Of a DNA stretch of 64,000 nucleotides, positions 6,521 to 34,880 are shown piece by piece. The notes beneath the pieces are model-generated. The model did not search any database. It was given only the letters and a program-made list of their open reading frames with translations, and was not told where the DNA came from. The translations under genes were made by a program, and so were the position numbers. Positions within the stretch are counted from its first letter, which is position 1. Every line of letters starts with the position of its first letter. This stretch comes from an uncultured Anaerolineaceae bacterium (GTDB lineage: Bacteria > Chloroflexota > Anaerolineae > Anaerolineales > UBA4823), in NCBI GenBank assembly GCA_964385625.1, contig CAYLPS010000004.1:6407-70406 (forward strand), given 5' to 3'.

Positions 6521-8308
6521 TCAAAGATCAAAACAGCACCATACCTTCCGCATCCGCCAACAAATCCCCCTGATCCCCGATTTCGACAATCCAAACTGTT
6601 CGGCAAGTTCACGCGTCGATTTTCCTCCCTTATGCAGCTCATAAATCTTCAAATCCCTCTCTGACGGCCCCCTCGACGCCGCTTTCAACCGCCGTCGTGT
6701 CTTCTTCCCCTCCCCAGCTAACTCTGCCACCATCATCCCCCTGGCTTCAACGCCCTTATAGCCCTCAATTGGGAAGGCATACCACACCTTTGCCCGATCA
6801 TACCCCAGTTCCACCTTAGTAATAAACCGTGGGAACAGCAGATTGCGTAGCACCCGAACGTCGCCGGCCTGGCTGGCGGCCTGGATCTTACCCCGCCATA
6901 CATCCAGCACCACTTTCAACGCTTCAGGAGAGATTTCCAATTGGGAGGCGGCTTTTTTTGATTGCAAATCCCAGATTTCTGCCTGGTGGAAAGCTAATTC
7001 AGCTTCACGTGCCTTCAGCCGCTCGCCAGCCGCCTGGGCGCCGTAGGTTTCGGCCAGGTCGAGCAGGTTCTGGATCGCCTTCTGCGTTTCTTTGACTTGC
7101 TTTTCCAGGCGCTCGATATCCCGTTCGATGGCCGATGTATCCGCCAGTTGGGCTCTGGTTTCGGCCAGCAGGGCCTGGATGAAGTCCGGGGTCAGGATGC
7201 GGGTCAGGACGGCATCCAGGATGGCATTTTCAGCTTTTTCGGCGTTGACCATCCGTCCCTGGCAACTATCCCAGCCATAACGCGACTTCTGGCCGCACAT
7301 GTAGTACGGCCATGTGAAGTTCCGCCCCTGCTGTGTGTTCGCTTGGCTGTACGCAACGGCCGCGCCACAGTGGATACACACTGCATGTCCCGAAAGCAGC
7401 GATGGGGCAGATTGCCGGCGAGGGTGGGCCACACTGGAAGTCTGCTTGTGTTTGGGGTGAGCACCTTGGATTTTCTGTACCGCGTCCCAGGTAGCCTGAT
7501 CTACCACTGCCGGGTGGTGATTGGGGATTTCTAAATCCCCGCATTTGCCAATGCCCAGGTAGGTCTTATTGGCGAAGAAACTTGGCCAACAGCTCTTGGA
7601 CTTGTAGAGGAATCCATGCGTGGCTTCCTGGATTTCCCCATAGCTTTTCCCCTGGAAACGCATGACCCAGGCCAGCTTCGCCAGTTCAAAAAGCTCCGGA
7701 TCCTCTATCCAGCGGCTGACTTTGCGCGGCATTCCGTTGCGCTTGGTTCCGATAATCACTTCTTCAGCCTGGTATCCTCGTGCAGGCACCCCGCCGGAAG
7801 AAAAGCCTTGTCGCACCTGGGCCGCAAGTGAGCGTTTCACATCGCGTGAGGTCTGCCGGCGCTTTTCTTCGTTGGTGATATCAATGATAACTTCCACTAC
7901 CCGGCCGTAGACACCCTCCGGGATCGGATCAGTCAGTGAATGAATGATTACACCCTGCTTACGGATCAGGGCTTTGTAATAGCTGGAGTCATCAAGTTCG
8001 CGAGCAAAGCGGGCAAAGTTCCATAATAGCAACCCGCGTGGGCGCAGGTCTGAGTCTTTGACCATATCCACCAGGTCGTTGAAAGCATCGCGTCCGATGA
8101 CGCTGCCGCCGCTGCGGGCTACATCGGCAAAGACATGCCCCATCAGCAGGTTGTGCCGCAGGCAGTAAGCCTCAATTTCCGTCTTTTGCTGGGGAACGCT
8201 TTGTTCCTGGCTGTCGCCGCCCGAATCGCGCAAATATGCCCAAACTATGGACCCGGGCGGAAGCGCAGCAGGTGGGGGCATATAGTCAGGCATGGTTTTT
8301 ACCTTCAA
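6521..8308 (-). CDS. Large serine recombinase (integrase type) with an extra C-terminal HTH
   Basis: Resolvase-type catalytic N-terminus (AYLRDSGGDSQEQS), recombinase domain, Cys-rich zinc ribbon (CIHCG...CGQKSRYGWDSC) and a long coiled coil. The last ~45 aa look like a sigma70-region-4/LuxR-type HTH (STRELAEQFGLSKSGIRGI). Confidence 0.9.
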   Translation of the reverse strand: MKVKTMPDYMPPPAALPPGSIVWAYLRDSGGDSQEQSVPQQKTEIEAYCLRHNLLMGHVFADVARSGGSVIGRDAFNDLVDMVKDSDLRPRGLLLWNFARFARELDDSSYYKALIRKQGVIIHSLTDPIPEGVYGRVVEVIIDITNEEKRRQTSRDVKRSLAAQVRQGFSSGGVPARGYQAEEVIIGTKRNGMPRKVSRWIEDPELFELAKLAWVMRFQGKSYGEIQEATHGFLYKSKSCWPSFFANKTYLGIGKCGDLEIPNHHPAVVDQATWDAVQKIQGAHPKHKQTSSVAHPRRQSAPSLLSGHAVCIHCGAAVAYSQANTQQGRNFTWPYYMCGQKSRYGWDSCQGRMVNAEKAENAILDAVLTRILTPDFIQALLAETRAQLADTSAIERDIERLEKQVKETQKAIQNLLDLAETYGAQAAGERLKAREAELAFHQAEIWDLQSKKAASQLEISPEALKVVLDVWRGKIQAASQAGDVRVLRNLLFPRFITKVELGYDRAKVWYAFPIEGYKGVEARGMMVAELAGEGKKTRRRLKAASRGPSERDLKIYELHKGGKSTRELAEQFGLSKSGIRGICWRMRKVWCCFDL

Positions 8309-8584: not shown

Positions 8585-9943
8585 TTATTCAAGCTCCACA
8601 ATCGGGTGGGGCTCGCCGCGGGGCCAGGTGACAGATTTAATGTGCAGGCTTTTCGCCCGCATGTATTCAGCCGTTTCTTCTATAGAGCGGATGACAGCCC
8701 GCCGCTGTGGAGGCGGTGCGGGCAGCGCCACAACTTGCGGCGCATTTTCTATTGGGATGGTCGGCTCTGGAGCTGGATTTTCAGACGGCCTGGCCTGCTC
8801 CCGGTGCTCAATTTGCGTCAGCGCCCAGGAAACCAGGTCGAGCAGCCGCCCACCGGAACGGTGATAATCGGTCAGGTCTTTATCATGGGGGCGGATATTG
8901 CGCCACTCGACCAGCCGGGTGCGTGCGCTCAGGTTCTGCCAGAAGTGGATCGCCCGCTGGCTCTTGCCATCCTGATCATAAAAGAGCAAAAAATATTTGA
9001 CCGGGTAGAAATAACGCGCCCATTGTTCAAGGCAAGGATAGTAAGAATTGCTGCCCAGGGTGATCACCCCCAGGGCTTGCCAGCGCGGGTTATCGGCGTG
9101 CAGCAGGCATTGCCTTAGCAGCATGGCGTCCAGTTCCCCTTCCGTGATACAGACCGCTTCTGGGGCGGAAAGCAGCGTCTCAGCCTGGAAAAGACCCGGC
9201 TGGCCGCCGCGCACCTGGATATACTTGGGTTTCCCTGCCGGCCGCCTAATCTTCAGGTTTGATATCGTCCCGTTGACCTGAGAAGGGATCAGGATTCCCT
9301 GGGAAAGGTACACCGGCCCTCCAGTCAACCCCCAGTGAGCGGGTTGATCGGTCGAGTCTATTGGAATATAGCCAATCTGAGCCGCCTGCAGTGTGGCAGG
9401 TTCGAGCCCCCGCTCTTGCATCCAATCCAACGGGGGTACCCGCCGTAGGCAGGGCTCACCGCTAACCGGGTCGGTTTCCTGCCATGCGACATCTACTGTA
9501 CCGGCTTTGCCCAACAGGCGCTCCATCCCCCTTTCGACAACTTGCCCGGCTCGCTTCTGCCAGCGGTCGTCTGGTGGCCGGCAGGGTTTTGCCGCCTTGG
9601 GCGCCTGCACCTTACGCTCCGGTGCAGCAGGCAGACCATCCTGTGTCAAAGCCAGGACCGCCTGCGTAAAAGTCTGCCCACTGAGGCGCATTTGCAGCTC
9701 GATGGCATCTTTCCAGCCGCCATCCTCTGGACCACCCGTGCAGTGGCGGCAAAACCAACGGTTGGTCTCTTCCTGGACATGGAAACGGTCATCGCCGCCG
9801 CATATCGGGCAGGGCCCGGCATATTCCCCTCCGCCGGTAGTGGCCACCCGCCTGAGCGTGGTTTTCCGGGACGCCAGGTCCTGCACATTTACCTGCCTGG
9901 CGCTCCTGATTTGGTCTGTTGAAACCATGGATTCTCTCCCCAT
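8585..9943 (-). CDS. DnaG-like primase (zinc finger + Toprim)
   Basis: CPICGGDDRFH...WFCRHC zinc finger; Toprim acidic motifs CITEGELDAM and LFYDQDGKS. Confidence 0.8.
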   Translation of the reverse strand: MGRESMVSTDQIRSARQVNVQDLASRKTTLRRVATTGGGEYAGPCPICGGDDRFHVQEETNRWFCRHCTGGPEDGGWKDAIELQMRLSGQTFTQAVLALTQDGLPAAPERKVQAPKAAKPCRPPDDRWQKRAGQVVERGMERLLGKAGTVDVAWQETDPVSGEPCLRRVPPLDWMQERGLEPATLQAAQIGYIPIDSTDQPAHWGLTGGPVYLSQGILIPSQVNGTISNLKIRRPAGKPKYIQVRGGQPGLFQAETLLSAPEAVCITEGELDAMLLRQCLLHADNPRWQALGVITLGSNSYYPCLEQWARYFYPVKYFLLFYDQDGKSQRAIHFWQNLSARTRLVEWRNIRPHDKDLTDYHRSGGRLLDLVSWALTQIEHREQARPSENPAPEPTIPIENAPQVVALPAPPPQRRAVIRSIEETAEYMRAKSLHIKSVTWPRGEPHPIVELE

Positions 9944-9945
9944 AC

Positions 9946-10012
9946 CCGGAAGGGCGTCCTTCGGGTTTCGGATTTCGCGTTTTAAAAACCCGAAACATGA
10001 AACCCGAAATCC
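9946..10012. repeat. Repeat-rich intergenic region (TTTCGGG / CCCGAAA units around a TTTTAAAAA centre)
   Basis: Sequence ccggaagggcgtccttcgggtttcggatttcgcgttttaaaaacccgaaacatgaaacccgaaatcc, between the helicase-like gene and the primase gene. Confidence 0.5.
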
Positions 10013-10018
10013 ACCCCT

Positions 10019-11851
10019 TCATGTTTTGTCGCTCTTGAACCTGCCAGGCAGGCCGCCACCCATCAAAATCCAGGCCTGGGCTGCCGGCCCACGCGCCCCT
10101 TTGCGCTCGACCAGGTCAATCAACCCATCCCGGCGCATCCGTTCCACCAGGCGATCCACCAGGTCACGGCGGTTGCTGTCCGTCATACTCAAAGCAATGG
10201 CCAGCTCGCGAGTGGACAGGCCGGCCGGTTTCTGGCGCAGGACACGGATGGTCTTGGCTTCCAGGTCATCATCTTCGCTGGCACGGCCGGCGTCTGCGAT
10301 CATCCGGTGCAGGCTGGCGCGCATCGCCTCGGTAATCACCTGGGCCTTTGCCCAGTGCTCCATGGTGACGGTGACAGTCCCGGTGTGAGAGGCGTTTGCC
10401 CAATCGGTTGTGGCCAGTAGCAGGGCTATTTTCATTGCCAGGGCGTGAAAGCGGCCATAGTTGGCGTAGAATTTCTCGAGCACCAGTTTCTGGCGCATTA
10501 GCTCCCACAACCCACTGTGGTAAGCATCCCAGCTCTCCCACACTCCCCTGGCCAGTGCCGCCTGCAGCGCCGCTGCGTTCTGGATTTCACCCAGGCCCGT
10601 TTCTTGCGGCTGAGGCAATATCTCCAATGCCAGGTCATGCAAGGAACTGATCAGCCCATGAGGGGTCTCAACCTGCGGTGGGTAGAAGACCCGCCAGGGT
10701 GGCACATCCGGCGTGATAAAGCCGACACGGGCAAACAGACCGTTGCCCCAATACGCCCGGTTATTGATATGCACGCGCATCGCGGAAGGTGTGGTAGAGC
10801 CACAAATGGTCAAATAAGCGTTATGGATGGTCTGGCGGCCGCGGATAATCGTGGAGGCAGCGGTCAGTTTCTTGGGACAATCGAACAACCTCAACACCTG
10901 ATTGAGTAAATCGGACGTGTACTTCTGGTCAAACGCTTCCAGCAGGGCAGCCGCTTCGTCGATCAGCCAGACACGCTGCGCTGCAAAAGGGCGTTCACGG
11001 CGCCAATCTTCCTGATCGTTCAGTTCCCAGGAGGCGAACGTATCAGGCTGGCGACCGGTCAGCTCGCTGATCAGGCTTTGCGGGGTGATCCCCACTGGCA
11101 GCATGAACCGCTCCAGGCCTGCCTGTTCCAGGATATAGCGAGCGAGGTCCAGCGCAGTGGTTTTGGCATACAGCGTCGAATGGGCCACAATCAAGCCATA
11201 AAAGTTGGAGTACAGGCTGGTGTTCGACACGCGCAAGAACACCCGCCTGGCGATGGCGGTGGCAAGGAGCGCCAGGCCTAAGATCAGGTGAAACAACCGT
11301 GGGCTCATGGGAGCCGCCTGGCAGGCAAAATCCATATAGGCACCCAACCAGCCGCCAATGCCATCGATCCCTCTGACCAGCTTCTCAGGATAACGAGCCG
11401 AAGCAGGCAGTTCAGGCACATCCGTCAGCATGCTCAGTTCCTGGGCCTTGGTTTCTGCTTTGAACTCATCCTCGTCTTCGGCAAGCGGGGCGGAAAGAAC
11501 CTCTGCTCGAATTTCGTTGGCATCGTCGCGACTGGCAATCAGCTCTTCAAATATTTCCACTGCGCTGCGCCCATTGCGCCGGGCAATAATCTCCCGAGCC
11601 AGTCCATTCCAGGGCTCAACCAGGTTCACTGCATCAGGCACATGCTCCCCCGCAATCAAACGGGCGATGTGACGTGCCCCTGCGTTTGCGGTATAATTTG
11701 AATAGCTACCGGCACGGTTTTCCGTGTCCTCTGAATTGGGCGCCTGCGACAAGGCGCCCAGTTTGTTTTCTTCCATGGGCATCTCCTGCTTGAGTTCAGC
11801 CAGCCTGGCCAGGCTCAGGTTCCGTGCGGTTCTGGTTTTCAACCTCCGCAT
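10019..11851 (-). CDS. Helicase/loader-like replication protein (DUF3987-like, tentative) with C-terminal winged helix
   Basis: 610 aa with a deviant P-loop-like VAHSTLYAKTTAL, Walker-B-like WLIDEAA, and C-terminal STRELAIALSM...LVERMRRDGLI. Lies directly upstream of the primase. Confidence 0.45.
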   Translation of the reverse strand: MRRLKTRTARNLSLARLAELKQEMPMEENKLGALSQAPNSEDTENRAGSYSNYTANAGARHIARLIAGEHVPDAVNLVEPWNGLAREIIARRNGRSAVEIFEELIASRDDANEIRAEVLSAPLAEDEDEFKAETKAQELSMLTDVPELPASARYPEKLVRGIDGIGGWLGAYMDFACQAAPMSPRLFHLILGLALLATAIARRVFLRVSNTSLYSNFYGLIVAHSTLYAKTTALDLARYILEQAGLERFMLPVGITPQSLISELTGRQPDTFASWELNDQEDWRRERPFAAQRVWLIDEAAALLEAFDQKYTSDLLNQVLRLFDCPKKLTAASTIIRGRQTIHNAYLTICGSTTPSAMRVHINNRAYWGNGLFARVGFITPDVPPWRVFYPPQVETPHGLISSLHDLALEILPQPQETGLGEIQNAAALQAALARGVWESWDAYHSGLWELMRQKLVLEKFYANYGRFHALAMKIALLLATTDWANASHTGTVTVTMEHWAKAQVITEAMRASLHRMIADAGRASEDDDLEAKTIRVLRQKPAGLSTRELAIALSMTDSNRRDLVDRLVERMRRDGLIDLVERKGARGPAAQAWILMGGGLPGRFKSDKT

Positions 11852-12011: not shown

Positions 12012-12213
12012 CAAAACCTCCTGAATCATGTTTATTGGACATACTTGCAACAGGATATCGAAAAGTGGAGGAAGGAAAAAGGGATTATTTCTTTTCCTTC
12101 TTAACCTTCCTGCACGTTGCCGTGCCTCTTCCCCGCCCTCAATCCGCCTTGTTTTGTATCGGGCTCGCACCGCCGGGTGGGAAGAGTATGAAGTTGGTAA
12201 TGTTCAGGGGTTG

Positions 12214-12269
12214 CTATTGTGTAACACAATAGGTTTGGCGAAATAAGTACTTATTGTATTATACAATAG
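12214..12269. promoter_or_regulatory. Paired palindromic operator-like sites (CTATTGTG-taa-CACAATAG; TTATTGTAT-t-ATACAATAG)
   Basis: Perfect 8-bp arms at 12214-12232 and 8/9 arms at 12251-12269, upstream of the RHH/replication operon. 12248-12272 recurs at 33248-33272 with 24/25 identity. Confidence 0.55.
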
Positions 12270-12330
12270 GTTATAACAAAACAAACACAGATCCTGGAAC
12301 CTGTACCTGGATTCAAATTATCAGCAACCC

Positions 12331-25772: not shown

Positions 25773-26714
25773 TTAATCCTCTAACTTGGCTACGGCTTCT
25801 TCCAGATCGCGCTCGCCAGGCGTGGTATAGATCCGGGTGGTGTTCAGACTGTTATGGCCGAGCAGCGCGGCGACTTTTTCAAGCGTTACGCCCTCATCCA
25901 GCAACGCCTTGGCAAAACTGTGCCTGAGCGTGTGGGGCGATACGTTTTGTAAGCCAGCGGCGGTCGCGGCGCGTTCCACAGCCCGCTGCACCGAGCGCAC
26001 ACCCACCCGCTCTCCCCGCTGGCCAATGAACAAAGCCTCGCCAGATCCTTCAGGCCGCACCGCCAACCACTCGTTCAGAAGCTGGCGCGCCGGGCCGTTC
26101 AAGGGAATAGAACGCTGTTTTTGACCCTTGCCGGAGCGCACCACCAGGCTGCCCTTGCGCTCGCCGATCTGCACATCGTTCAGTTGCAGGGCGCACAGCT
26201 CGCCAACACGCAAGCCGGTGTTCAGCAGCGTTAGCGCCATCGCGGCGTCCCGCAGGCGCATCACCCACAAGCGTGGGTAGCGCTGCCTGGCCAGGCGCAG
26301 ATCGTTTTCAACGGCCCGCACCAGCGCCGCCCGCTGGCGTTTGTCCAGCCATTTCGGGGCCAGGGGCACGCTTTCCACGTTGCGGATATTGAGCGCCGGG
26401 TTTTGGGTCAGCTTGCCGGTTTGGACTGCCCAGTGCCCGTAAGCGACCAACGCCGCCAGCTTGCGATTGATGGTGTGCGGCCGAGCGCCGGCTTCGCTCA
26501 GAGATTGACGATAGGCGCGCAGTTCACTCGCCGACCAGTCAAGCAGGCGAAACGGCTCGCCTTTGGCGTGGGCTGACCAGGCGGCATAGATACGGATGTC
26601 GCTGATATAACCACGGATAGTGACCGGAGAGCGATCTTGCTCGGTGAGGTACCCGGCAAAAGCCTGCAAGTCCAGGCCATCGTCATATTCGGTTAAGTGT
26701 GATGTAGTTGTCAT
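25773..26714 (-). CDS. Tyrosine recombinase (XerC/XerD-like)
   Basis: N-terminal SAM-like domain. Catalytic region has ARxxxxxLxxxGLRVGE, HTLRHSFA, LLGHNSLNTTRIYT. Confidence 0.9.
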   Translation of the reverse strand: MTTTSHLTEYDDGLDLQAFAGYLTEQDRSPVTIRGYISDIRIYAAWSAHAKGEPFRLLDWSASELRAYRQSLSEAGARPHTINRKLAALVAYGHWAVQTGKLTQNPALNIRNVESVPLAPKWLDKRQRAALVRAVENDLRLARQRYPRLWVMRLRDAAMALTLLNTGLRVGELCALQLNDVQIGERKGSLVVRSGKGQKQRSIPLNGPARQLLNEWLAVRPEGSGEALFIGQRGERVGVRSVQRAVERAATAAGLQNVSPHTLRHSFAKALLDEGVTLEKVAALLGHNSLNTTRIYTTPGERDLEEAVAKLED

Positions 26715-28205: not shown

Positions 28206-28262
28206 CCATAACTCCTTGCAAGGGTGAGGGTGACTGCGCGCCCTGTTGCGCACATTGGATGC

Positions 28263-28304
28263 TGCGCACATTGCTCGCGCACAGCCACCCTCTTAATATG
28301 CGCA
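28263..28304. repeat. Left copy of a 42-nt inverted repeat (partner 30360-30401)
   Basis: TGCGCACATTGCTCGCGCACAGCCACCCTCTTAATATGCGCA equals the reverse complement of 30360-30401 at 39/42 positions (20 nt perfect). It lies in a cluster of (T/C)GCGCA hexamers. Confidence 0.85.
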
Positions 28305-28369
28305 CGGTTTATGCGTGTACTCCGCTGGTGGCAGAGCGGATAGGAAATATCCGGTAGCGACCGCGCACA

Positions 28370-28946: not shown

Positions 28947-29174
28947 CTAGCTCCACAGCTCGCCCAACGAATCCAGGATGGCGTTGGCCTCTTCCTGCTC
29001 GCTGAGCGGCTGGGGTTGGTTGGATAGCCCGCCGCGCATGGCGCGTAAGACTGCTGCTGCACGCTGGCGGGGCGGGACGGTCTCTAGAAAGCGGATGATG
29101 TCATCATCACGCCCCGGCACAAGCCATAATTTGAGCGGTACAACGACAACTTGAGAACGGCGGGGGCGAGCCAT
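28947..29174 (-). CDS. Small DNA-binding-like protein (75 aa), ParR-like by position
   Basis: Lies immediately downstream of the ParM-like gene. N-terminal basic stretch plus a beta-strand-like VVVVPLKLWLV followed by helices. Function inferred from gene order only. Confidence 0.4.
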   Translation of the reverse strand: MARPRRSQVVVVPLKLWLVPGRDDDIIRFLETVPPRQRAAAVLRAMRGGLSNQPQPLSEQEEANAILDSLGELWS

Positions 29175-29213: not shown

Positions 29214-30323
29214 TCATGCTACCTGTTTGGGCGCATCCAGCACCCCGGCGCGTTGGGCAAACTTGGCCAGGCCGCGGGCATTTGCAGTTACCAGTTCAGG
29301 CAGTTCGATGGCATTGGGGTAAGCCGAGCGCAGCCGCTCGCCCAGCGCCAAAATACCGCCGCCCGTGAGTAAGATATAGTCGAAGGCTTTGCCATCTTCC
29401 CAGGTTTGGGATAGATAAGCGCGCACTTCGCCGGCGGCAATATCCAACGCCTGGCGCGCCAGCGGTTTCAGGTCGAGCGCCTCGCCTTTGACCAGCAGTT
29501 CTGCCCGGTGGCCATTGCAGGCCAGGCGGACATATTCATCGGCCTCGTGCAGGCTGAAGCGCCGCCCGCCTTTTTGCAGCAGCAGGTCTTGCATGACCTT
29601 GGCAGCCCGGCGCTGGCCAAGCGTCTCGCCGCCGGTGTAGCGCCGGACGATCTGCCCACCGGCCAGGTGGAACAAATCGAGCGTGTTGAAACCCTGGTCG
29701 AGCACCGCTACCGAGGCTTTTAGATCGGCCGGTGAGCGCCCCCACTGGCCGTTGCTATTCAGCCCCCAGTCGAAGAAACTGCCGAGCGGCTGAGCCATGG
29801 CCTTGAGCGCCTGAATGTGCAGGTGAAAGGCCTGGCTGTTGAGGATGAAGTGATGATCGCCGATCAGCCAGGTTTCAAGCGCCTGCACCACGGTTTTCGC
29901 GTCTGGGCTTTGCAGCACCTGCACCGGCAGCGCCACGATCAGAGCCAACTCGATCAACGGCTCAAGTTCCACCTTGACGCCCAGGCGTAAGAGCAGCCTC
30001 CCCAAGGTGGTATAGAGCAGGGCGCGTAACTCGGGCGAGAAAGTCAGCCGGTCAAAGTCCAGGCGCTCGATGGGGCGGGCATACAGGTTAACGTGCTGAC
30101 CCACCAGGTGGCGCAGATCGTCCACGATGACCACATCGGGCATTTGCTTCTTCTGGCGGACCAGGCCAATACTCAACAGCCCGTTGTCAGTTTCACCCAC
30201 GCCCACAATGGCGGGAACCCGTTCGGTCACGATTTTATCTTCCCAAACGGCAGCGGCCTTGAAGGCGTAAAAGCCAACATCCACGGCGATTTTATAAGTG
30301 GAAGGTGTATTTTGAGATGTCAT
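29214..30323 (-). CDS. ParM/StbA-like actin-fold partition ATPase (369 aa from ATG 30323)
   Basis: Actin-fold motifs IAVDVGFYAFK, VAVLDQGFNTLD, ILLTGGG. AAGGAG lies 8 nt before the ATG at 30323; the longer ORF-track start was rejected. Confidence 0.8.
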   Translation of the reverse strand: MTSQNTPSTYKIAVDVGFYAFKAAAVWEDKIVTERVPAIVGVGETDNGLLSIGLVRQKKQMPDVVIVDDLRHLVGQHVNLYARPIERLDFDRLTFSPELRALLYTTLGRLLLRLGVKVELEPLIELALIVALPVQVLQSPDAKTVVQALETWLIGDHHFILNSQAFHLHIQALKAMAQPLGSFFDWGLNSNGQWGRSPADLKASVAVLDQGFNTLDLFHLAGGQIVRRYTGGETLGQRRAAKVMQDLLLQKGGRRFSLHEADEYVRLACNGHRAELLVKGEALDLKPLARQALDIAAGEVRAYLSQTWEDGKAFDYILLTGGGILALGERLRSAYPNAIELPELVTANARGLAKFAQRAGVLDAPKQVA

Positions 30324-30359
30324 GCAAAAGTCTCCTTGTCTGCGAGTGCGCAAATTCAT

Positions 30360-30401
30360 TGCGCATATTAAGAGGGTGGATGTGCGCGGGCAATATGCGC
30401 A
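30360..30401. repeat. Right copy of the 42-nt inverted repeat; contains a sigma70-like promoter facing the ParM-like gene
   Basis: On the minus strand: TTGCCC-17 nt-TAATAT, ending about 41 nt upstream of the ParM-like ATG. TGCGCA hexamers occur throughout 30346-30417. Confidence 0.8.
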
Positions 30402-30409
30402 CACAGAAA

Positions 30410-31777
30410 TCATGCGCATCCAGCCTGTACGGGTTCCTGTATGGGCAGGACTGCCCCTGTATGGGCATGTACGGCCTGTACGCCTGTATGCGCTACCCCG
30501 GCCAGGCGAGCCAATTCGAGGGTAATGCGGCGGGCGTCGGTGGCGTGTTGGGGTTTGGTCAGCCAGCTCCGGCGCTCGAATTGCTCGGCGATCTTCTGCA
30601 CCTGGTGGTGGCTGATCCCCTGCCCTGCCAGCGCCTGCGCCAGCCGATTGACGATGAAACGCCCTTCGAGCTGCTCCAGGGCATAAGCCACCAGCGCCCG
30701 CTCCACATCGCTCAAAGGGTTGAACTCTACCGGCTGAGCGGGGACAGCTTGCTCAGCCGTGAGGCGGTACGCCTGGAAAATGCTGTACTGACCGTTCATG
30801 AATAGGATGCCCCGCCCTGGCAAGCGCAGACTCAGCGCTTCTTTACCCCACCGGCGCGACCCCAACACGACCGCTGCCGAGGTATCGTCTGAAACGCGGA
30901 AGGAGATGCGCACCGGGATCATCGCCGAAAGCCCGCGCGGCACATCCTTTGCCCGCCAGTTGTGGCCGGCCAACACAACGGTCAAACCCCACTTGCGCCC
31001 GCGCCGCGCCAAGTCGGTGACCTGTTCCAAGATTTCCTTGTCGTCGAAGTAGGAGTTGGCCTCGTCAACGAACAGGATCAGGCGCGGCAGCGGCTCTTTG
31101 GCGATCTGGTTGTACTCGTCCAGATTAGTTGGCATTGCTCCGTTCTGAGCGGCTTCCTGGAACAGCGTCCGGCGCCGGGCCAGTTCAGCGTGAACCGCTC
31201 CCAACAGAACTTTGAACTCCTTAGCAGACTGAGCAACTGGGTAAGGGTTCTTGGGGTTGAGCACATCGGGGTTGAACGTGGTAGCGTCCGGGTCAACATA
31301 GAACCTGATCCAGCCATGTAGAGTTGCGGCGTAGTTCAGGCCTTCCAACAAGTTGCTCTTGCCCGAACCCGGCTCACCGCAGATCAGGGTGTTTTGCAGG
31401 GTCAACATGGCGAGCGGCCCAGACAGCCCGACGCCCAGGGGCAGCGAGTTTTTCTCGAACACACTGGGGTAGGGGATCATTTCGGGCAGCTTGGGAAGGG
31501 CACTGAGCAAGATCATGTAACGTAATCCTGTCGAGTTAGAGAGAAAAACTGGTTTACCGTGCAAGGCCGTACTCAGGTGATGCAGGGTTTCGCTGGAGAT
31601 GAAGCCTTCCAGCCGCCCTTCCATCTGGGTCAAGTTGAGCACCACAGCCAGCCAGACCAGGCCGTTGCGTTCGGTCAGGTAGAAGGTGACTGCCGCGTTC
31701 AGGTTGCGTTGTGCCAGGGTATGCACAATCAGCCGGGCGCAGTGCCTGGCTTCTGAGAAAAAGCGAGATCCGTTCAT
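30410..31777 (-). CDS. FtsK/SpoIIIE-family DNA translocase (TraB-like) with C-terminal winged helix
   Basis: Walker A GEPGSGKSNLL, Walker B LILFVDEANSYF, no N-terminal membrane spans, and a C-terminal wHTH-like region (IVNRLAQALAGQGISHHQVQKIAEQF). Confidence 0.85.
   Translation of the reverse strand: MNGSRFFSEARHCARLIVHTLAQRNLNAAVTFYLTERNGLVWLAVVLNLTQMEGRLEGFISSETLHHLSTALHGKPVFLSNSTGLRYMILLSALPKLPEMIPYPSVFEKNSLPLGVGLSGPLAMLTLQNTLICGEPGSGKSNLLEGLNYAATLHGWIRFYVDPDATTFNPDVLNPKNPYPVAQSAKEFKVLLGAVHAELARRRTLFQEAAQNGAMPTNLDEYNQIAKEPLPRLILFVDEANSYFDDKEILEQVTDLARRGRKWGLTVVLAGHNWRAKDVPRGLSAMIPVRISFRVSDDTSAAVVLGSRRWGKEALSLRLPGRGILFMNGQYSIFQAYRLTAEQAVPAQPVEFNPLSDVERALVAYALEQLEGRFIVNRLAQALAGQGISHHQVQKIAEQFERRSWLTKPQHATDARRITLELARLAGVAHTGVQAVHAHTGAVLPIQEPVQAGCA
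30424..30492. repeat. Iteron cluster CCTGTA(C/T)GG x5 plus one CATGTACGG
   Basis: Copies start at 30424, 30436, 30456, 30466, 30475 and 30483, inside the last ~25 codons of the TraB-like gene. Confidence 0.7.
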
Positions 31778-32799
31778 ACATGGTTTCCTCCAGTGAGCAA
31801 CTTGGGTTCGATTTCATCCAATAAGGGGCGGACGCGCGGGTCATCAGGGGGGATGACGATGACTTCTGTATCCACGATGTCCCCTTCCGGCAAGGCCGGT
31901 TGGGTAGCCTTGTTACCGGCCTGCAGCGCCTGGCGCAGCACGGTGCGGCGTTGGGCGCTCTGAACCGCCTGGCCGGAGTTGGCGGCCAGCATCAGTTCAG
32001 CCGCCTGGGCGCGGGCAGCCACCTGGCTTTGGAGCTGGGGATCATCGGCGCCACCGGCGGTGAGCACCTTGCCTTCCTTGCTGACCGAGGCGCCAGGGTT
32101 CAACGAGCGGCTGATGTCGAAGATGTTGAACCCGCCCTTGCCATTCGGGGTGATCACCACCGGGCGATTCGCCAGGCGGTGGATGCCAAAAGCGCGCAGC
32201 AGCACCCAACTGACCGACTGCCAGGCGATGAACATTCCAACTGCGAACAAGACTACCAGAGCAATGCGCCCGGCCCAGGTGCGAAAGAGCAGGGTTTGGC
32301 GCTCGCTTTCACGCTGTTCAGCCAGGCGCTCCACCTGGGCGGTGGCTGAGGCTTGCAGCAGCCCAACGGCGATGCTGGTCGAGGTAGCCTGGTTGTTGTA
32401 GGCCGACTGAGTGGCTGTGCCGGCAGCGCTCAAGGCTGCTTGCGTGTGAACAGCGGCTTGTGCGGTGGCTGTGGCTTCGATAGACTGTTGGGCGGCCGTG
32501 ACGGTGGCAGCCTGAGCCTGTTCCGTCTGGCGCAAGAAATAGGCTTCAGTCGCTGCGGCCTGGGTCATCTGTAAAACAACCGCTGTACTTTCAGCGGCCA
32601 GTTCGGACATGCGGCCTTCGCTGGCCTGGCGGGTAGCCCGCGCCTGCAGGGCGGCGGCCTGGTCCGTAGCCACATAGGGCGGGATCGGCGTGGCGATCTC
32701 CACACGAACATCATCGGTTACAGGAGCGCCGGTACAAGCCTGGAGCAAAACCGCCAGGCCCAAGATCGCGAACAGGATCACCACAACCCGAGGGTTCAT
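31774..32799 (-). CDS. Membrane/lipoprotein-like protein with Ala/Gln/Thr-rich region (341 aa from ATG 32799)
   Basis: MNPRVVVILFAILGLAVLLQAC is signal/lipobox-like. There is a second hydrophobic span IALVVLFAVGMFIAW. ATGA-type overlap with the TraB-like gene. Confidence 0.5.
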   Translation of the reverse strand: MNPRVVVILFAILGLAVLLQACTGAPVTDDVRVEIATPIPPYVATDQAAALQARATRQASEGRMSELAAESTAVVLQMTQAAATEAYFLRQTEQAQAATVTAAQQSIEATATAQAAVHTQAALSAAGTATQSAYNNQATSTSIAVGLLQASATAQVERLAEQRESERQTLLFRTWAGRIALVVLFAVGMFIAWQSVSWVLLRAFGIHRLANRPVVITPNGKGGFNIFDISRSLNPGASVSKEGKVLTAGGADDPQLQSQVAARAQAAELMLAANSGQAVQSAQRRTVLRQALQAGNKATQPALPEGDIVDTEVIVIPPDDPRVRPLLDEIEPKLLTGGNHV

Positions 32800-32809
32800 A
32801 CCGATCACT

Positions 32810-33226
32810 CTAGAATCCCCAACCTTGCAGGGGGAGATCGTCATCTTCCTCAACATTTGCCGCCAGCAGTATCTGCTGCTTTGGCAGCGGCTGAGGCTGC
32901 GGGGAAGATAATTGTGCCCGTATGGGTACATTTATTTTCTGCCAACGGGCGTTGGGGCCAGGCAGCCAGCGGGGCTGGGCCGTCGGCGCTGGCAGCGACT
33001 TGCCGCGCAACACGCCTACGCCCAGGCCAAACACAATGCCGGCCGCTAAAGAGACAACCACCAGGAAGGCAGTCAGGCACTGGCCGGTGAGCAAGGCTGT
33101 GCTCGACGCCAGATTGGCCGCGCCGTTGGCCAGGCTGGCCATGGAAGCAGTCAACGCAACCCCTAATGCGCCAAAGGCGAATATGAGCAGAAGGATGCCG
33201 GCAGAGATGTAGAGAACCTTGTTCAT
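32810..33226 (-). CDS. Small membrane protein (138 aa, two predicted spans)
   Basis: Hydrophobic stretches ISAGILLLIFAFGALGVAL and CLTAFLVVVSLAAGIVFGLGVGV. First gene of the leftward transfer operon. Confidence 0.5.
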   Translation of the reverse strand: MNKVLYISAGILLLIFAFGALGVALTASMASLANGAANLASSTALLTGQCLTAFLVVVSLAAGIVFGLGVGVLRGKSLPAPTAQPRWLPGPNARWQKINVPIRAQLSSPQPQPLPKQQILLAANVEEDDDLPLQGWGF

Positions 33227-33250
33227 GATCGTGTCACTCGATAATGTTAC

Positions 33251-33308
33251 TTATTGTATAATACAATAGGTTTGGATATTAAAAATGCCTATTGTGGCAT
33301 ACAATAGG
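33251..33308. promoter_or_regulatory. Second pair of palindromic operator-like sites (TTATTGTAT-a-ATACAATAG; CCTATTGT-ggcat-ACAATAGG)
   Basis: Located at 33251-33269 and 33288-33308, directly upstream of the transfer operon start (33226). Shares 24/25 nt with 12248-12272. Confidence 0.55.
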
Positions 33309-33334
33309 ATAGCATAATCTCACCATTTGGTCAA

Positions 33335-34700: not shown

Positions 34701-34734
34701 CCGTACCCTCTTGTATGGCACAACAGGTTTCGCC

Positions 34735-34787: not shown

Positions 34788-34807
34788 TAAGACACGCGAA
34801 CTGCGTG

Positions 34808-34880
34808 TGCCCCCACCCAGATTCGAACTGGGGTTTTAGCCTTGAAAGGGCTGCGTCCTGGTCCCCTAGACGATGGGGGC
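34808..34880 (-). tRNA. tRNA-Glu (anticodon UUC)
   Basis: GCCCCCATCGTCTAGGGGACCAGGACGCAGCCCTTTCAAGGCTAAAACCCCAGTTCGAATCTGGGTGGGGGCA has a 7-bp acceptor stem, D arm GTCT/GGAC, anticodon loop CTTTCAA, and T arm CCCAG-TTCGAAT-CTGGG. CCA is not encoded. Confidence 0.9.

Follow-up and report, generated by a model that had tools for sequence, protein, structure and literature searches.

Known translocase systems and the locus considered here

The plasmids pSVH1, pJV1 and pWTY27 of Streptomyces, and the actinomycete integrative and conjugative elements (AICEs), depend on a single FtsK/SpoIIIE-like motor, TraB or TraA, with a winged helix-turn-helix (wHTH) domain at the C terminus. The cognate clt loci are described as clusters of 7-9-bp direct repeats bound by helix alpha3 of this wHTH (PMC3583192, PMC4447253, PMC12857230), situated at the 3' end of the motor gene or overlapping it (PMC3583192, PMC4447253, PMC3429521, PMC12857230). 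The clt of pWTY27 includes 16 bp inside traA and 159 bp downstream, where TraA leaves footprints (PMC3583192, PMC4447253, PMC12857230), and that of pJV1, as cited in PMC3583192, contains nine CCGCACA[C/G][C/G] repeats. Such a single FtsK-like pump with its repeat locus has been treated as peculiar to mycelial actinomycetes (PMC4447253, PMC12857230). Here we consider a comparable arrangement in a 64,000-nucleotide stretch of DNA (the window) from an uncultured Anaerolineaceae bacterium (contig CAYLPS010000004.1). A GC-rich island in the window carries a gene for an FtsK/SpoIIIE-like ATPase, and the 3' end of this gene is occupied by an array of six direct repeats, or iterons:

30410..31777, minus strand: FtsK/SpoIIIE-like P-loop ATPase gene, 455 aa (Pfam, PHROG, AlphaFold, Foldseek)
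30424..30491, minus strand: iteron array, six direct (C)RTACAGG copies in gene direction

We estimate at roughly 55% the probability that the FtsK/SpoIIIE-like double-stranded DNA (dsDNA) translocase of the element recognises or loads onto its own DNA at this array, which would then be a cis-acting site with the same function as the Streptomyces clt. That it serves intercellular transfer or spreading is a slightly weaker proposition, at or just under even odds.

The likeness to the Streptomyces systems extends beyond a repeat cluster at the end of a motor gene. The TraB systems and AICEs also do without a type IV secretion system (T4SS) or relaxase, have small membrane proteins encoded alongside, and are integrative with int and xis genes. 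Nevertheless, there are clear differences. The Streptomyces elements reside in actinomycetes, whereas the present one is from Chloroflexota (Anaerolineae). TraB and TraA measure about 650-770 aa, and pWTY27 TraA has predicted transmembrane (TM) helices, while the window protein has 455 aa and no membrane segment; its membrane proteins are encoded by separate, translationally coupled genes. The array lies largely inside the open reading frame (ORF), where it is read in several frames. Because of the missing membrane segment, the similarity limited to the ATPase domain and the Chloroflexota host, we describe the locus as working like clt/TraB and not as being TraB.

Among chromosomal motors, the FtsK-orienting polar sequences (KOPS) read by FtsK gamma and the SpoIIIE recognition sequences (SRS) are dispersed, strand-skewed words recognized by a C-terminal winged helix. 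The principle is shared, in that a hexameric motor pumping dsDNA is loaded or oriented by means of a winged helix that recognises a short, oriented DNA word (8 bp). In the family considered here, however, each element has a single tight array, outside which the word hardly occurs. Furthermore, its ATPase differs from FtsK in having neither N-terminal membrane domain nor linker, and its wHTH is nearer to the MarR type. TcpA of Clostridium perfringens plasmid pCW3 (PDB 6o1z), an FtsK-like ATPase used in conjugation, is the closest solved structure; we know of no repeat array or wHTH for it. TcpA is a coupling protein working with a T4SS-like system (PMC5365140), in contrast to the window island and the flanks examined, which show no recognisable T4SS or relaxase family. 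A non-actinobacterial and T4SS-independent counterpart is TdtA, an FtsK/HerA-type hexameric ATPase encoded on the tRNA-inserted element ICETh1 of Thermus thermophilus and needed for DNA donation (PMC5365140). TdtA is HerA-like, with no detected DNA-binding domain and no known cis site (PMC5365140), whereas the window system has both a wHTH and an array.

The repeat array in the window

A preliminary description of this DNA had listed five CCTGTA(C/T) copies and one CATGTAC, starting at 30424, 30436, 30456, 30466, 30475 and 30483. These are present exactly as listed, all in the same orientation. In plus-strand reading and in gene direction they are:

30424-30432, plus-strand reading: CCTGTACGG; 30432-30424, minus strand, gene direction: CCGTACAGG
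30436-30444, plus-strand reading: CCTGTATGG; 30444-30436, minus strand, gene direction: CCATACAGG, first of two occurrences in this list
30456-30464, plus-strand reading: CCTGTATGG; 30464-30456, minus strand, gene direction: CCATACAGG, second occurrence
30466-30474, plus-strand reading: CATGTACGG; 30474-30466, minus strand, gene direction: CCGTACATG, degenerate
30475-30483, plus-strand reading: CCTGTACGC; 30483-30475, minus strand, gene direction: GCGTACAGG
30483-30491, plus-strand reading: CCTGTATGC; 30491-30483, minus strand, gene direction: GCATACAGG

In gene direction the start-to-start spacing is 8, 9, 10, 20 and 12 bp. The copies overlap codons ~430-453 of the 455-codon frame, in agreement with the earlier statement that they coincide with the last ~25 residues, and the array does abut a region of TGCGCA boxes (at 30347, 30360, 30396 and 30413), which is discussed with the partition genes below.

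The whole window contains 19 occurrences of CCTGTAY, against 8.0 +/- 3.0 expected, and five of these fall inside 69 bp. In first-order Markov simulations, the largest same-strand cluster per 69 bp was a single copy in 296 of 300 runs and two copies in the other four. The 9-mer with one mismatch is not enriched over the window (22 occurrences, 20.8 expected), so that the signal of the array is one of clustering. Beyond the array, CCTGTAY occurs 14 times where about 8 are expected, with a strand bias of 11 on the plus to 3 on the minus strand, a pattern that may be due to gene orientation or to chromosomal sites resembling clt. A scan of 30200-30650 for sigma-70 promoters and terminators found neither.

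Arrays in related loci

We gathered 39 related loci (numbered with the prefix L), 31 of which include the 3' end of the FtsK-like gene. A scan of genome contigs yielded only 5 loci, and most of the comparative material comes from a metagenome scan and identity look-ups. All 31 loci with the gene end carry an array of 4-9 direct repeats of 7-9 bp, and the motif is essentially confined to one array in each locus. At most a few codons separate the start of the homologous arrays from the conserved '...ELA.LAG' that closes the wHTH, and iterons of differing sequence share a spacing pattern of 8, 9, 10, 20 and ~10-13 bp. Where the preliminary description had suggested searching for the same 8-9-mer in related elements, the result is an array at the same position in 31 of 31 loci, with a lineage-specific sequence. 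The following iteron classes occur:

GTACAGG/ATACAGG: window, L003, L008, L009, L011, L018, L032
GCACAGG: L005, L010, L012, L013, L014 (= L022), L033, L039
TCACAGG: L036
NACAGG or nCAGG: L034, L035
CAGATAGG or ATAGG: L015-L017
GCACACG: L019
GCCAAACC, CTCAAAC or ACAAACC: L007, L020, L021, L023-26, L037

The family appears to be large. A profile search of 1.84 billion representatives returned at least 252 clusters (50% identity) at E <= 1e-30, most of them full-length, and many of these have repeat-type tails, such as TNLQTLQTPTN, SNRQTGQT and HTGIQAIQAQTG. The named relatives are Anaerolineaceae or Chloroflexota metagenome-assembled genomes (MAGs), apart from one binned as Saccharibacteria. In the latter (L007, CAZBOT010000103.1, Candidatus Saccharibacteria), an array of six GCCAAACC copies and a downstream ALP gene are found; either the family extends beyond Chloroflexota or the contig is mis-binned.

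Two further peculiarities concern individual arrays. In L018 (5121-5233), the stop codon lies within a set of four to six direct GTACAGG-like copies, which are followed, ~20 bp on, by three inverted copies, CCTGTACG; this convergent arrangement is not seen in the other loci. In L014 (1577-1621), L019 (1381-1434) and L039 (11310-11365), the iterons CCGCACAGG and CCGCACACG have a core identical to the clt repeat CCGCACA[C/G][C/G] of pJV1, as given in PMC3583192. This could be a coincidence or reflect a common recognition mode.

It could be imagined that the repeats are replication-origin iterons bound by a Rep protein of the element, since direct 7-9-bp iterons are typical of plasmid origins. 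Candidates for such a protein would be a 488-aa product of the island, which has no assignable function, or its primase/DUF3987 module. However, the replication genes differ among the loci (488-aa family, DnaB, DnaG-type primases, DnaD/DnaC-like), while the position and architecture of the array are constant. Identity to the 488-aa protein of the window is 63-66% in L009, L010 and L011 alike, though the iteron type of L010 is a different one. Furthermore, no AT-rich stretch adjoins the array in the window sequence. A role as origin is therefore improbable.

Constraint at the DNA level

The array is almost certainly a DNA-level cis element, to judge from how it is read, and it seems to dictate the peptide that it encodes:

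30413..30499, minus strand: residues 427-455, GVAHTGVQAVHAHTGAVLPIQEPVQAGCA, a coding tail that results from reading through the iterons

In the window, the motif is read in two frames, as cAT ACA GGn (HTG) and as GTA CAG Gnn (VQA/IQE). Among the homologues, array copies occur in two to three reading frames; L007 uses three, and five consecutive copies in L014 are translated as AQ/HR/HR/AQ/AQ. In L019 and L039 the entire array comes after the stop codon, and in L015-L018 it straddles or follows it. The stop codon is placed differently among homologues, which indicates that its position varies relative to a fixed cis element. Since the array begins only a few codons past the segment coding for the wHTH, the ORF reads through it and acquires a disordered tail with a motif-dictated sequence. 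In the AlphaFold (AF2) model of the window protein, residues 430-455, the part encoded by the repeats, have a predicted local distance difference test (pLDDT) score below 50.

Codon usage agrees with this. Valine is encoded by GTA in 21 of 26 cases in the tails (81%) and in 11 of 169 in the gene bodies (7%), with p = 8e-16, although the p-values of this codon comparison are indicative only because the sequences are related. The corresponding frequencies in tails and bodies are 73% and 10% for threonine ACA, 56% and 16% for alanine GCA, and 96% and 24% for glutamine CAA. In L010 (5357-5441), the translocase ORF continues for 28 more codons and crosses the upstream half of the region with the TGCGCA boxes before it stops, a further sign that the extension of the ORF at its 3' end is incidental read-through of regulatory DNA.

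The preliminary description had itself raised the possibility of a repeated peptide conserved at the protein level but not at the DNA level, and a Q-rich tail pattern, TGVQAVQ..TG...Q..VQ, does recur in many homologues. Yet its elements 'TG' and 'VQ' are one DNA word in two frames, the tail of L014 reads differently, and no part of the array is translated in L019 and L039, and little of it in L015. Frame usage, fixed synonymous sites, predicted disorder of the tail and the variable position of the stop relative to the array all argue for constraint on the DNA, and selection of the repeats for their peptide is effectively refuted.

Iteron class and recognition helix

The DNA-binding part of the translocase immediately precedes the array:

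30500..30709, minus strand: C-terminal winged-helix domain, residues 357-426 (AF2 models, Foldseek)
30572-30610, minus strand: predicted recognition helix H3 HHQVQKIAEQFER, residues 390-402 (AF2)

The 'wHTH-like region' noticed earlier at the end of the protein is borne out by the model, with three helices (357-369, 376-382 and 390-402) plus a wing at pLDDT ~85-90. Modelled in isolation, the domain has a pLDDT of 81 and is matched by Foldseek to MarR-type wHTH DNA-binding domains (TMq ~0.66); FtsK gamma is absent from its top 50 matches. We do not call it a 'gamma-domain homologue', as the Foldseek matches were generic MarR-type wHTH domains.

Across the homologues, the iteron class follows the class of predicted helix H3:

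GTACAGG: [ST]HHQVQK.AEQFERR, in 20 of 21 sequences
GCACAGG: [ST]SHQVK[TIL]LAQ.WERR, in 16 of 16 sequences
G[GA]ACAGG:.YR[VI]SKLAE.WE.R
CAGATAGG: NYQVQK.AERFE.R
GCACACG: HHRVRKLAEQWETC
CAAAC-type: ..AR...ERYE.R

The most instructive cases are switches within groups of related proteins. Two translocases from the same metagenome (3300044712), P0019 of L032 and P0024 of L033, have 80-92% identity in the body, whereas the value drops to 40-55% over wHTH and tail. Their arrays, at 11297-11351 in both loci, consist of GTACAGG in L032 and GCACAGG in L033. The same switch separates L011 from L012 and L013, where wHTH plus tail and array differ within related bodies. Both switches are independent of the overall phylogeny. 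Such swaps within a clade suggest that wHTH and array move as one specificity cassette, and the difference between L032 and L033 looks like a recombinational swap of this cassette. On the strength of these comparisons, the array is likely to be bound by the wHTH.

The translocase and its membrane-protein neighbours

The remaining features of the translocase and of the genes immediately upstream of it are:

31355-31378: Walker A motif, GEPGSGKS
31055-31078: Walker B motif, ILFVDEAN
31774..32799, minus strand: membrane protein, 341 aa (JGI call; the ORF extends to 32931; hydropathy, synteny)
32810..33226, minus strand: small membrane protein, 138 aa, with 2-3 hydrophobic segments

The window ATPase remains below the threshold of Pfam FtsK_SpoIIIE (21.7 bits), which its homologues P0011, P0013 and P0019 exceed, and it matches phrog_1358, 'FtsK/SpoIIIE-like', at 4e-21. 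Its AlphaFold (AF2) model, built on an input of 28 homologues, has a mean pLDDT of 84.9 and starts with an alpha/beta domain (1-125), followed by a RecA-like domain with Walker A and B, a short linker and the three-helix-plus-wing domain (357-426). As a whole, the model comes closest to TcpA (6o1z; Foldseek E 1e-19, target-normalised TM 0.72), followed by FtsK motor domains (E ~1e-15). An hhalign comparison with pIJ101 Tra gave 96% probability and 26% identity, confined to the ATPase domain (columns 117-337). A hydropathy scan of the 455-aa protein showed no hydrophobic membrane segment. Among 72,556 plasmids, the island had no megablast match, and tblastn with the ATPase returned only distant matches to the ATPase core (~27% identity), mainly from Bacillus and Clostridium.

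The stop of the gene for the 341-aa membrane protein overlaps the start of the FtsK-like gene. This protein has an N-terminal hydrophobic, lipobox-like segment and a TM segment at ~170-197, and wherever a locus offers enough sequence, a counterpart with 33-85% identity (tblastn) is encoded immediately upstream of the FtsK-like gene; in L032-L037 the same position is held by a protein of 329-381 aa. Every locus has a common core of three genes, encoding in this order a small TM protein, a membrane protein of 330-385 aa and the FtsK-like ATPase, and the 341-aa protein is a candidate membrane partner of the soluble ATPase.

An FtsK/HerA-type ATPase could also be a virus-like genome-packaging motor, in which case the array would be its pac site. 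The window protein has a weak match to a PHROG terminase family (phrog_2666, 7e-6), one homologue, L039, stems from an IMG/VR contig, and some loci contain phage-associated domains such as DUF5131 and DUF6011. These hints are outweighed by the search for capsid, portal and tail families, which detected none in the island or the flanks examined, by the integrase and replication-loading genes present in the 13 kb around L039, and by the single full-length relative among 2.9 million viral contigs. Packaging is a very improbable function, even more so than replication initiation.

Partition genes and the TGCGCA module

Downstream of the translocase gene lie an actin-like partition ATPase gene and a small gene, separated from the array by a second set of repeated boxes:

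29214..30323, minus strand: ALP/ParM-like actin-like partition ATPase, 369 aa (Pfam ALP_N and MreB-like_C; phrog_691)
28947..29174, minus strand: p75, 75 aa, after the ALP gene (ribbon-helix-helix (RHH)-like by eye)
30324..30423, no strand assigned: module upstream of the ALP gene, in which TGCGCA boxes at 30347, 30360, 30396 and 30413 and a variant TGCGCG at 30383 flank CCACCCTCTTAAT

The ALP matches partition proteins of phrog_691 at 9e-28, besides weak matches to ParM/PRTRC_D. Its gene starts 86 bp beyond the FtsK-like stop, and TGCGCA boxes lie in that gap. Their layout is TGCGCA-N11-TGCGCA-N7-YGCGCA, then CCACCCTCTTAAT, then TGCGCA-N7-TGCGCA, with identical box spacing in the window and L009. 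A second, inverted module (28247-28310) is located upstream of the 488-aa gene and is devoid of RTACAGG. The two inverted modules (30347-30418 and 28247-28310) bracket the ALP, p75 and p183 genes. No Pfam, PHROG, NCBIfam or PDB-sequence match was obtained for p75, p183, the 488-aa protein, the membrane proteins or a tetratricopeptide-repeat (TPR) protein.

The preliminary description had offered, as an alternative, that the array belongs to the par centromere. In type II partition systems, iterated sites precede parM; in ParMRC, for instance of R1 with its parC, iterated short sites lie upstream of the actin-like ATPase gene, which is followed by a gene for a small RHH-like protein. The repeats might accordingly be a parC-like centromere of the ALP/ParM-type system, bound by the RHH-like p75, and they do lie ~100-170 bp upstream of the start of an ALP that matches partition families. 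The parC pattern, however, fits the TGCGCA module and not the RTACAGG array, which is independent of ALP and p75. The array is kept when the next gene encodes an ALP (window, L007-L011, L020, L021), a ParA (L003, L012, L013 and L032, where it overlaps the stop), a DNA methyltransferase (L033), a radical-SAM protein (L014, L035), an NYN-like protein (L015-17) or a product of no assigned kind (L018, L024, L036, L037, L039), and GTACAGG itself occurs both with ALP (window) and with ParA (L003, L032). The p75 of L010 is 91% identical to that of the window, yet the L010 iterons are GCACAGG; the p75 proteins of L009 and L011, at 72-75% identity, go together with GTACAGG as in the window. In addition, the distinct, conserved TGCGCA module flanks the likely promoter and is duplicated by the 488-aa gene without iterons, and in the CAAAC-type loci ALP is preceded by an intergenic repeat of another kind, CCGTCAACAAT. 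Synteny, the p75 mismatch and the separate TGCGCA module tie the array, as far as comparison of loci can do so, to the translocase and not to the partition genes, and a centromeric function is quite unlikely. The TGCGCA module, which is separate from the iteron array, probably serves the ALP-p75 operon as operator or parC-like site, and p75 is a candidate ParR-like adaptor or repressor for its boxes.

The adjacency of translocase and ALP genes recalls PMC9513070, and actin-like partition genes may have an association with FtsK-like transfer motors that goes further back.

The host element

The island occupies ~6400-34880 and has a GC content of 0.59-0.62, compared to ~0.50 outside. Its other main features are:

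34807-34880: tRNA-Glu adjoining the island
6521-8308: large serine recombinase
8585-11851: primase Zn-ribbon protein and DUF3987 protein
25773-26714: XerC/D-like tyrosine recombinase, 313 aa (Phage_int_SAM_1 plus Phage_integrase)

The island also encodes an HTH_17 excisionase-like protein, an AbiE toxin, a type I restriction-modification (R-M) system, an SNF2 helicase, the 488-aa protein, p183, p75 and the TPR protein. The tyrosine recombinase, the HTH_17 gene and the tRNA-Glu are features that the window element shares with AICEs. A cargo block of low GC content (type I R-M and AbiE; GC down to 0.435 at 20-22 kb) interrupts the island, which may consist of two elements in tandem. Neither the island nor the flanking regions of L001 and L032-L037 contain a recognisable Pfam family of VirB4, VirD4, TraG or relaxases; the wording 'recognisable' is chosen because many ORFs are unannotated.

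Pairs of 25-nt palindromic boxes, TACTTATTGTATAATACAATAGGTT, occur at 12211-12272 and 33248-33310, with a weak copy at 34705-34729. Between these two sites, which lie at either end of the island's R-M/transfer part and are separated by 21 kb, the boxes are 96% identical. These boxes may be repressor operators or element-internal recombination sites.

A possible mechanism

The clt-type locus put forward in the preliminary description gains support, as a putative site, from the constraint at the DNA level, the positional linkage to the translocase gene and the tracking of iteron class and H3. On this basis, the following course of events could be imagined. The GC-rich island by the tRNA-Glu would excise, with the aid of its tyrosine recombinase and HTH_17 excisionase-like gene. 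The C-terminal wHTH domains of the ATPase would then bind the six same-orientation (C)RTACAGG copies through H3, and this binding would assemble or orient a hexamer on the element DNA. The soluble motor would dock on the two membrane proteins encoded just upstream and pump unprocessed dsDNA through a septum or the cell envelope, so that it would reach the adjacent cell in the filament; this transfer would proceed without a T4SS or relaxase.

The main rival keeps the interaction of wHTH and array but assigns it an intracellular task, namely KOPS-like loading for segregation, septal clearance or Xer-type dimer resolution, together with the partition genes and the XerC/D-like recombinase. FtsK gamma reads KOPS and activates XerD. 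The recombinase of the island is XerC/D-like in its architecture, ALP or ParA genes are frequent neighbours, and all copies of the array have one orientation, as expected of a polar loading signal. On the other hand, KOPS and SRS are dispersed, skewed chromosomal motifs and not a single array by the motor gene, the conserved partners are two membrane proteins instead of the recombinase, and from locus to locus the genes for recombinase and partition proteins differ or are displaced. Such a task is unlikely, although less so than the function of centromere, origin or pac site.

Several observations weigh against a loading site for transfer. Neither excision nor att sites were found, and a search for direct repeats of the tRNA-Glu 3' end as att sites was negative. 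In many loci a partition gene (ALP or ParA) lies 0-2 kb downstream of the array, so that a role in segregation is conceivable. The ATPase is devoid of the membrane domain of TraB and has a T4SS coupling protein, TcpA, as its closest solved structure; only the ATPase domain aligns to Streptomyces Tra, and the matches of the wHTH are to MarR-type domains in general, not to FtsK gamma in particular. The correspondence of helix and iteron has an exception in L018, where GTACAGG iterons occur with the helix SHHTIRTLAQAWERR, and the sequences compared are phylogenetically non-independent. The correspondence could also be explained in part by physical linkage, which alone could transfer wHTH and array together because the two adjoin. 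Finally, all sequences are from metagenomes or MAGs.

Implications

What is new here is the split motor, made up of a soluble ATPase and separate membrane proteins, the wHTH/iteron cassette overlapping the 3' end of the motor gene, and the occurrence in a second filamentous phylum. In the limited collection of literature searched, no paper linking AICE-type elements with Chloroflexota was found. It is a tentative proposal, held somewhat less firmly than the transfer function of the array itself, that filamentous Chloroflexota (Anaerolineae) carry widespread integrative elements which move as dsDNA by a split, T4SS-independent TraB-like machine with a swappable H3/iteron cassette, and that this would be the first Streptomyces-type system of conjugation or spreading outside Actinomycetota, once more in a lineage of multicellular filaments.

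The array is a clean case of regulatory DNA dictating a translated tail in several frames, a tail that annotators could mistake for a conserved peptide motif. Furthermore, the matched pairs of helix and iteron, with T, C or G at one iteron position versus Q394K, K395T, E398Q and F400W in H3, form a natural series for dissecting how FtsK-type motors read DNA. The analogy suggests that dsDNA transfer by a single protein, as in Streptomyces, is not confined to the actinomycetes. If true, the TraB-clt mechanism would extend to another filamentous phylum, and there would be a concrete cis site for gene flow in the Anaerolineae, which are abundant in sludge and sediments and genetically intractable.

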